Shown here piece after piece: positions 1-335 of a DNA stretch of 335 nucleotides. The stretch's first letter is position 1; the number at the start of each line of letters is the position of its first letter. This stretch comes from Escherichia coli (GTDB lineage Bacteria > Pseudomonadota > Gammaproteobacteria > Enterobacterales > Enterobacteriaceae). Under the pieces are notes generated by a model, which was given only the letters and a program-made list of their open reading frames with translations, did not search any database and was not told where the DNA came from. The translations under genes and the position numbers were made by a program. The DNA lies in NCBI RefSeq assembly GCF_003334765.1, contig NZ_QOWT01000135.1; one strand, written 5' to 3'.

Positions 1-117
1 TACAGTCATCATGCCTGTCGTACGGAGTGTTATGCCATGACGGTCCATTATTACCGGCTGCGGGATTACGCCCTGCAACATCCGGAATACGACGCCATTA
101 TGCGCATTATTGACTGA
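1..117 (+). CDS. 3' end of upstream CDS (5'-partial; 38 codons + TGA stop at 115-117); probable antirestriction protein of the ArdB/KlcA family (YfjX/YafX-like)
   Basis: Frame 1 is open from position 1 to the TGA at 115-117 and translates to YSHHACRTECYAMTVHYYRLRDYALQHPEYDAIMRIID*. The C-terminal pattern (Y-x-x-L-R-x-x-A-x-x-HPE-x-x-AI-x-R-x-ID) matches my recollection of ArdB/KlcA-type antirestriction C-termini. Its position immediately upstream of a RadC-like gene matches the known CP4-island gene order. Family assignment is from memory, not a search. Confidence 0.6.
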   Translation, partial: YSHHACRTECYAMTVHYYRLRDYALQHPEYDAIMRIID

Positions 118-124
118 AAGGGGG
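117..124 (+). promoter_or_regulatory. Shine-Dalgarno / ribosome-binding site for the downstream RadC-like CDS
   Basis: G-rich purine tract AAAGGGGG at 117-124, overlapping the last base of the upstream stop codon. The spacer from the GGGG core to the ATG at 133 is 8 nt, within the usual 5-9 nt range. A second AGGA at 126-129 is only 3 nt from the ATG, probably too close to act as the main SD. Confidence 0.5.
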
Positions 125-132
125 CAGGAACA

Positions 133-335
133 ATGCAACAGATTTCCTTTCTGCCCGGAGAAATGACGCCCGGCGAGCGCAGTCTCATTCAGCGGGCCCT
201 GAAAACCCTGGACCGCCATCTTCATGAACCCGGCGTGGCCTTCACCTCCACCCGTGCGGCACGGGAATGGCTGATTCTGAACATGGCGGGACTGGAGCGT
301 GAAGAATTCCGGGTGCTGTATCTGAATAACCAGAA
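133..335 (+). CDS. yeeS: RadC-like JAB-domain protein (UPF0758 family; YeeS/YkfG/YfjY paralog group), N-terminal 67 codons, 3'-partial (continues beyond window)
   Basis: ATG at 133-135 is preceded by an SD and opens a frame with no stop to the window end. Translation: MQQISFLPGEMTPGERSLIQRALKTLDRHLHEPGVAFTSTRAAREWLILNMAGLEREEFRVLYLNNQ. I recognise this as the N-terminal region of the E. coli prophage-encoded RadC-like proteins; the JAB metal-binding motif (HNHPSG…) lies downstream and is not visible here. Which paralog (yeeS, ykfG, yfjY or a non-K-12 homolog) cannot be resolved from 200 bp; the symbol is given as the family representative only. Confidence 0.85.
   Translation, partial: MQQISFLPGEMTPGERSLIQRALKTLDRHLHEPGVAFTSTRAAREWLILNMAGLEREEFRVLYLNNQ

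Follow-up and report, generated by a model that had tools for sequence, protein, structure and literature searches.

The window (the whole stretch of DNA analysed, 335 nt) spans the junction between two genes that lie on the same strand. In frame 1 of the plus strand no stop occurs from base 1 until the TGA at 115-117 (translation YSHHACRTECYAMTVHYYRLRDYALQHPEYDAIMRIID), and this part (1..117, +) is the 3' end of an ArdB-type antirestriction gene, contributing residues 124-161 of a 161-aa protein together with the TGA stop. It is followed by an intercistronic spacer of 15 nt, AAGGGGGCAGGAACA (118..132, +), which has no stop codon in the frame of the upstream gene and which holds a Shine-Dalgarno-like AGGA for the downstream gene, placed 4 nt 5' of the ATG at 133-135. 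The remainder (133..335, +) is the 5' end of a RadC-like JAB gene and covers the first 67 of 158 residues and two bases of codon 68; bases 133-333 form 67 open codons that start with MQQISFLPGEMTPGERSL and end with YLNNQ (full translation of the window part: MQQISFLPGEMTPGERSLIQRALKTLDRHLHEPGVAFTSTRAAREWLILNMAGLEREEFRVLYLNNQ). Within this gene an in-frame internal ATG at 163-165 (+), with GGAG just 5' of it, encodes Met11 and corresponds to the annotated start of K-12 YeeS. A preliminary description of this DNA had reported the end of an antirestriction gene and, 15 nt later, a RadC-like JAB gene in the same orientation; coordinates, spacing and orientation are all exact. The junction is correctly read and ordinary: genes, order and island context had all been annotated before and are already known.

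The upstream ORF is the end of WP_191002965.1 (161 aa), annotated as 'antirestriction protein' in E. coli NRZ14408. The full-length protein matches the Pfam Antirestrict model PF03230 from end to end (E 8.9e-35, model positions 1-92 of 92) and aligns through to the C-terminus with both ArdB of CFT073 (PDB 2WJ9, E 6.5e-94) and KlcA (PDB 2KMG, E 3.1e-17). Searched alone, the 38-aa window fragment gives E 1.2e-11 against PF03230 (model positions 55-92 of 92) and E 8.7e-20 against the solved ArdB, 2WJ9. The earlier assignment of this fragment to the antirestriction family is therefore supported by significant matches from the 38 residues themselves, and the protein is related to KlcA. NCBIfam, which holds no ArdB model, returned no match for either the full-length protein or the 38-aa fragment.

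The C-terminal Asp of this protein, D161 (GAC, 112-114), aligns to KlcA D142, and E152 (85-87) and R144 (61-63) align to E133 and R125, which are listed among the conserved residues of KlcA (PMC2836571). In ArdB of R64 the equivalent of the C-terminal Asp (D141) is required for antirestriction activity (PMC12429846). The window carries the C-terminal helix of ArdB with the terminal Asp needed for antirestriction activity. In the study of Serfiotis-Mitsa et al. (PMC2836571), each of the four Type I families was inhibited in vivo by ArdB of CFT073 and likewise by YafX and YfjX, and EcoKI was unaffected in vitro; KlcA was found to have a novel fold and not to be a DNA mimic (PMC2836571). For R64 ArdB, direct inhibition of BlihIA in vitro has been described at 30-fold molar excess (Kudryavtseva et al., PMC12429846). 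The in vitro evidence on the mechanism of ArdB is divided, with EcoKI unaffected (PMC2836571) and BlihIA inhibited directly (PMC12429846). Relief of Type I restriction would be expected of the window allele by analogy with its homologues (CFT073 ArdB, ~95% identical; YafX; YfjX).

Many database 'proteins' related to the upstream gene are ArdB chimeras with internal segment duplications (P0001, P0003, P0018, P0202 and others), and further ones consist of only ArdB residues ~104/105-161 joined to unrelated N-termini. Either paralogous copies may have been wrongly assembled into one another, or there may be a recurrent breakpoint upstream of the window, near codon 104.

The downstream ORF is the exact 5' end of WP_001186181.1 (158 aa), annotated as 'RadC family protein' in NRZ14408. 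At full length this protein matches PF04002 (E 7.3e-45, model positions 2-121 of 121), Prok-JAB PF14464 (E 2.3e-4) and PDB 2QLC (E 1.8e-25), and with 149.1 bits it passes the subfamily cut-off of TIGR00608 (133.85). Against the equivalog NF000642 it scores 161 bits, below the cut-off of 180, and covers profile positions 88-211 of 212 only; given this score and the absence of the N-terminal region, the island protein falls outside canonical RadC/YicR. The 67-aa window fragment searched alone gave no significant RadC match (PF04002 E 0.16; NCBIfam RadC models E 0.04-0.08), so that the RadC-like call comes from exact identity to the 5' end of the full-length gene. The proposal that the 67 residues are a RadC-like N-terminus thus stands by way of the 158-aa gene, but a search with the fragment itself (E 0.16) does not reproduce it.

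Residues 1-37 of the RadC-like protein form a short N-terminal extension in place of the ~75-aa N-terminal region of housekeeping YicR, and residues 38-67 are the start of the JAB domain, including the invariant E55-R56-E57 (295-303). E57 (301-303), which aligns to E25 of 2QLC, is likely the JAMM glutamate. The JAMM motif (Glu...H107-x-H109-x7-S117-x2-D120) is complete in the full-length protein, with E57 as the one element inside the window, and E57, H107-N-H109, S117 and D120 are invariant across the five proteins aligned (the island protein, YeeS, YkfG, YfjY and YicR). This motif agrees with the catalytic centre given for the RadC domain in a 2025 review, namely one Glu at strand beta-1, two His and one Asp (PMC11981726).

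The preliminary description had left the biochemical role of the RadC-like member open. Reviews indeed still call the activity of the RadC domain open (PMC5512222, PMC11981726), but YfjY, renamed LfgB, is reported to degrade the antitoxin MqsA (PMC10846083), so the statement holds in part. This is the sole direct assay of a RadC-like paralogue, and it used overnight incubation with an SDS-PAGE read-out (PMC10846083). From domain fusions, Iyer et al. proposed that RadC-type JAB proteins lack a ubiquitin-tail groove and may process nucleic acids (PMC5512222). In RefSeq the K-12 names have been changed along these lines (L003 22920-23869, a K-12 locus): yfjX has become lfgA ('putative antirestriction protein') and yfjY has become lfgB ('CP4-57 prophage protease'). 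The naming is based on one 2024 paper, and ykfG and yeeS still carry the neutral label 'RadC-like JAB domain-containing protein'.

Three E. coli chromosomes, those of NRZ14408 (NZ_CP158426.1 940324-940658), TUM9803 and LT599825, match the window at 100% identity. In NRZ14408 the gene order is GTPase, Ag43, DUF905, DUF932, ArdB, RadC-like, DUF987, CbeA, CbtA, DUF5983, DUF957 and DUF4942, with the kps capsule genes and then the core gene yghD beyond. The DUF987 gene and the CbeA/CbtA-type pair anticipated after the RadC-like gene are all present in these flanks, downstream and in the same orientation (L001 20678-21773, L001 being the NRZ14408 locus). None of the conditions that would have refuted the preliminary description came true, and the idea that this is accessory island DNA is supported, as the block lies inside an insertion of ~50 kb that reaches from tRNA-Phe(GAA) and an integrase to yghD. 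The island starts at this tRNA gene, beside yqgA, with an adjoining arm-type P4-family tyrosine integrase; the latter is homologous over its whole length to IntA of CP4-57 (35% identity, E 3e-76) and does not resemble IntF of CP4-6 to any meaningful degree. A distal direct repeat of the tRNA-Phe 3' end, sought as an exact copy of the last 14-30 nt of the tRNA or as a 24-mer with at most three mismatches, does not occur in the 85 kb between yghD and cmtA (NZ_CP158426.1 920324-1005000). The element is a pheV island without a recognisable distal attachment site, and its far edge is placed only by the core gene yghD. Two genes of the island are damaged: upstream of the block, an insertion of ISEc12 (IS21-family) splits the gene for the Ag43/Cah autotransporter (L001 12895-18328), and the DUF5983 gene is truncated (L001 21770-21946); an IS110 remnant follows DUF4942. 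With no second tRNA 3' end, a split Ag43 gene and a truncated DUF5983 gene, this island copy looks degenerate.

For the DUF4942 protein, the last of the block (L001 22277-23119), there is a match to a PHROG with the annotation DNA methyltransferase (E 3.6e-15), which hints that the block may also carry a DNA-modifying function.

The G+C content is ~0.55 over the block and 0.36-0.40 beyond it. Strong terminator-like hairpins were found at L001 18349, 18654 and 22220, that is before DUF905, before DUF932 and after DUF957, and a scan of the locus gave no promoter-like or terminator-like sites at the ArdB-RadC junction. Because such hairpins flank DUF932-DUF957 and none lies at the junction, a single transcript fits; in the literature yfjXY-ypjJ-yfjZF is handled as one operon (PMC10846083, PMC5371832).

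Other signals in the window were also considered. Rfam at a permissive threshold returned only a chance lncRNA match (E 0.68), and the predicted fold of the junction (bases 80-180) is no better than that of shuffled sequences (z +0.49). A candidate hairpin over the Shine-Dalgarno sequence and ATG (122-156) was rejected, with a z of -1.27, 25 of 200 shuffles as good and no conservation in six junction types. The same applies to an antisense ORF of 40 aa (66-188), a spurious one whose frame contains stop codons in both CP4-6 and CP4-57. As to repeats, the window has no direct ones and short imperfect inverted ones only.

The junction is very common. Of 5,426 complete E. coli genomes, 4,790 carry it at an identity of at least 90%; the places number 12,828 in all, with a median of two per genome and never more than 13, and this recurrence puts it far beyond chance. 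The 4.4-kb block from DUF932 to DUF4942 occurs in 5,015 of the 5,426 genomes (median three, maximum 18 places). Both are chromosomal almost throughout: seven of the 12,828 junction places in RefSeq E. coli are on plasmids, and the block is found at 14,891 places on chromosomes against seven on plasmids. Beyond E. coli, the whole block is also carried by one Citrobacter plasmid, and the block was further found in a K. oxytoca record, in Pantoea dispersa and in two metagenomic contigs. An origin from plasmids was considered and rejected, as the high-identity 'plasmid' records are mostly megabase-sized or K-12 records with the yafX-ykfG (CP4-6) pair. A phage origin was rejected as well. Among 50,697 phage records there is one match, OR844783.1, a 3.2-kb contig of ~2x coverage flagged UNVERIFIED_ORG, which is almost certainly host chromosomal DNA carried into the phage preparation. 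PHROG families do exist for proteins of the block, and the DNA block is absent from genuine phage genomes. The label 'prophage-like' given in the preliminary description is thus nominal only.

In one of the metagenomic contigs, L014 (4403-5444), a tandem pair of divergent ArdB genes (161 aa and 147 aa) precedes the RadC-like gene. The second is ~40% identical to the window protein and overlaps the start of the RadC-like gene by 4 nt. This contig also has two CbtA genes downstream.

A different picture is obtained for more distant relatives of the upstream gene. Our first homologue search listed close Enterobacterales relatives only, and a representative homologue search was used to obtain the contexts of distant ArdB/KlcA homologues (38-48% identity). 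These have no RadC neighbour in other contexts: IncP KlcA, for example, is found beside KlcB, KleA, KorA and KorB, and two further settings (L012/L013 and L015/L016) are without RadC too. The adjacency of ArdB and RadC is therefore a property of the enterobacterial block and not of the ArdB/KlcA family.

Taken as a whole, the window very probably holds the junction of two co-transcribed but separately translated genes of an island block, one for an ArdB inhibitor and one for a putative JAMM peptidase. Both belong to an accessory block that is conserved in the tRNA-associated integrative islands of enterobacteria and has the order DUF932, ArdB, RadC-like JAB, DUF987, CbeA antitoxin, CbtA toxin, DUF5983, DUF957 and DUF4942, and the present copy sits in an extraintestinal E. 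coli, in its pheV island. Gene identities, gene order, copy number and island context are direct observations on the genomes. The upstream product would be a protein of the ArdB/KlcA fold that relieves Type I restriction without DNA mimicry, an activity taken over from experiments on homologues. Downstream, a short RadC-type JAB protein would be made with a complete metal site of the Glu / His-x-His / Ser-x-x-Asp type. It may act as a zinc metallopeptidase on a protein substrate, as we infer from the paralogue LfgB that cleaves the antitoxin MqsA; this peptidase reading is weakened because it comes from one study only, and that of YfjY/LfgB, a paralogue 72% identical. Translation of the two genes would be separate, since the downstream gene starts 15 nt past the upstream stop and is preceded by a Shine-Dalgarno sequence of its own. 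ArdB and the RadC-like protein would then be co-resident cargo rather than obligate partners. Any role of the products at element establishment, as put forward in the preliminary description, we likewise infer.

Other explanations of the same junction can be weighed against this one. In keeping with the ssDNA processing named in the preliminary description, the RadC-like protein might act on incoming single-stranded or damaged DNA at entry into a new cell, with ArdB shielding the same DNA. A mutator phenotype upon overproduction of YfjY, cited in PMC10846083, would agree with an activity on nucleic acids, as would the extra N-terminal region of ~75 aa that YicR has and the island form lacks; nonetheless we consider this unlikely. 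Much less probable still is a functional pairing of ArdB with the RadC-like protein. Their genes are adjacent in all copies of the block that were examined, K-12 carries three RadC-like paralogues, and the in vivo antirestriction assays of ArdB reportedly used K-12 derivatives. Yet ArdB/KlcA homologues exist without a RadC neighbour (IncP KlcA, L012/L013, L015/L016), CP4-44 keeps YeeS without any ArdB gene, and the spacing at the junction varies (15, 11, 8 and -4 nt). Moreover, ArdB of R64 directly inhibits a Type I enzyme in vitro (PMC12429846).

The fact that the two ORFs share a frame, with a TGA and five sense codons (KGAGT) between them, brings up another possibility: UGA read-through could sometimes join both in one polypeptide, a small two-domain 'polyvalent' protein. 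Three junction types (the window, CP4-6 and K. oxytoca) have in common the TGA, the stop-free spacer of 15 nt and the shared frame, with different spacer sequences. Exactly such a fusion is seen in P0088 (275 aa), which reads ...MRIID-R-KGAGT-MQQISF..., and RadC and antirestriction domains do occur fused in polyvalent proteins (PMC5512222). However, P0088 is a single sequence from one ENA contig of 1.8 kb in which a sequencing error is possible, a separate Shine-Dalgarno sequence and ATG serve the downstream gene, and a shared frame is expected by chance in one of three cases. Elsewhere the layout differs: CP4-57 has a TAA, a spacer of 8 nt and another frame, Pantoea has a spacer of 11 nt and L014 has an overlap of 4 nt. 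As spacing and frame differ in these three, the shared frame is probably a coincidence, and we give read-through hardly any credence. A broader version, in which ArdB and the JAB peptidase act jointly and the peptidase is the missing cellular factor behind the relief of EcoKI seen in vivo only, or in which a minor ArdB-JAB fusion arises by UGA read-through, is in our view highly improbable. Ideas of a partner or a fusion have some room because the adjacency is invariable within the block, the frame is shared in three junction types and the fusion P0088 exists; they are weakened because there are ArdB/KlcA genes without RadC, R64 ArdB inhibits directly in vitro and the spacing is not conserved. 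The preferred reading remains that of two separately translated genes carried side by side.

Few accessory modules of E. coli are as widespread as this block. What is understood of the biochemistry of its RadC-like member, and of the place of that member after ArdB, goes back to one study of a paralogue, and the question touches thousands of genomes.

Several known systems allow a direct comparison. The nearest ArdB is that of CFT073 PAI II (ORF14, PDB 2WJ9), which is ~95% identical over residues 25-161 (counted from the alignment) and is in the same length class, with the same C-terminal ...MRIID and the same island context. Over the 38 residues of the window it has two differing positions (EYD against ECS), whereas the N-terminal 24 residues, a region outside the window, diverge. 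The window ArdB is of the CFT073 island type. For the RadC-like gene, housekeeping RadC/YicR (NF000642, TIGR00608) shares 41% identity in the JAB domain and has the same E / HxH / S / D motif, but the island form is without the first ~87 profile positions, which make up the N-terminal region of YicR (~75 aa).

In the K-12 islands CP4-6 (yafX-ykfG-ykfH-yafW-ykfI) and CP4-57 (yfjX-yfjY-ypjJ-yfjZ-ypjF) the genes follow one another in the same order and orientation, and both islands thus show the arrangement that had been described for them. The DNA of the window, in contrast, is just 73.5-77.8% identical to theirs, and the ArdB protein is 67-69% identical to YafX and YfjX. CP4-6 shares with the window the TGA stop and the spacer length of 15 nt between yafX and ykfG; in CP4-57, yfjX-yfjY (lfgA-lfgB) differs by its TAA stop, its spacer of 8 nt and its frame. 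With respect to the RadC-like protein, identity is 98.6% over 148 aa for YeeS of CP4-44, 82% for YkfG and 72% for YfjY, and the protease claim for LfgB thus concerns the most distant of the three K-12 paralogues.

The proposed kinship to the K-12 islands therefore holds for the order of CP4-6 and CP4-57, but the nearest RadC-like relative is YeeS of CP4-44, an island without ArdB. CP4-44 has the same downstream order (DUF987, here YeeT, then CbeA, CbtA and YeeW) and differs upstream, where yeeR replaces DUF905, DUF932, ArdB and the first 10 codons of the RadC-like gene. Homology of the K-12 CP4-44 DNA to the window begins at about base 157 (L005 12280-12320), and YeeS is annotated from Met11. 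Given that the homology begins only there and that yeeR lies in place of the missing part, the window keeps the ancestral junction that has been lost from CP4-44 of K-12.
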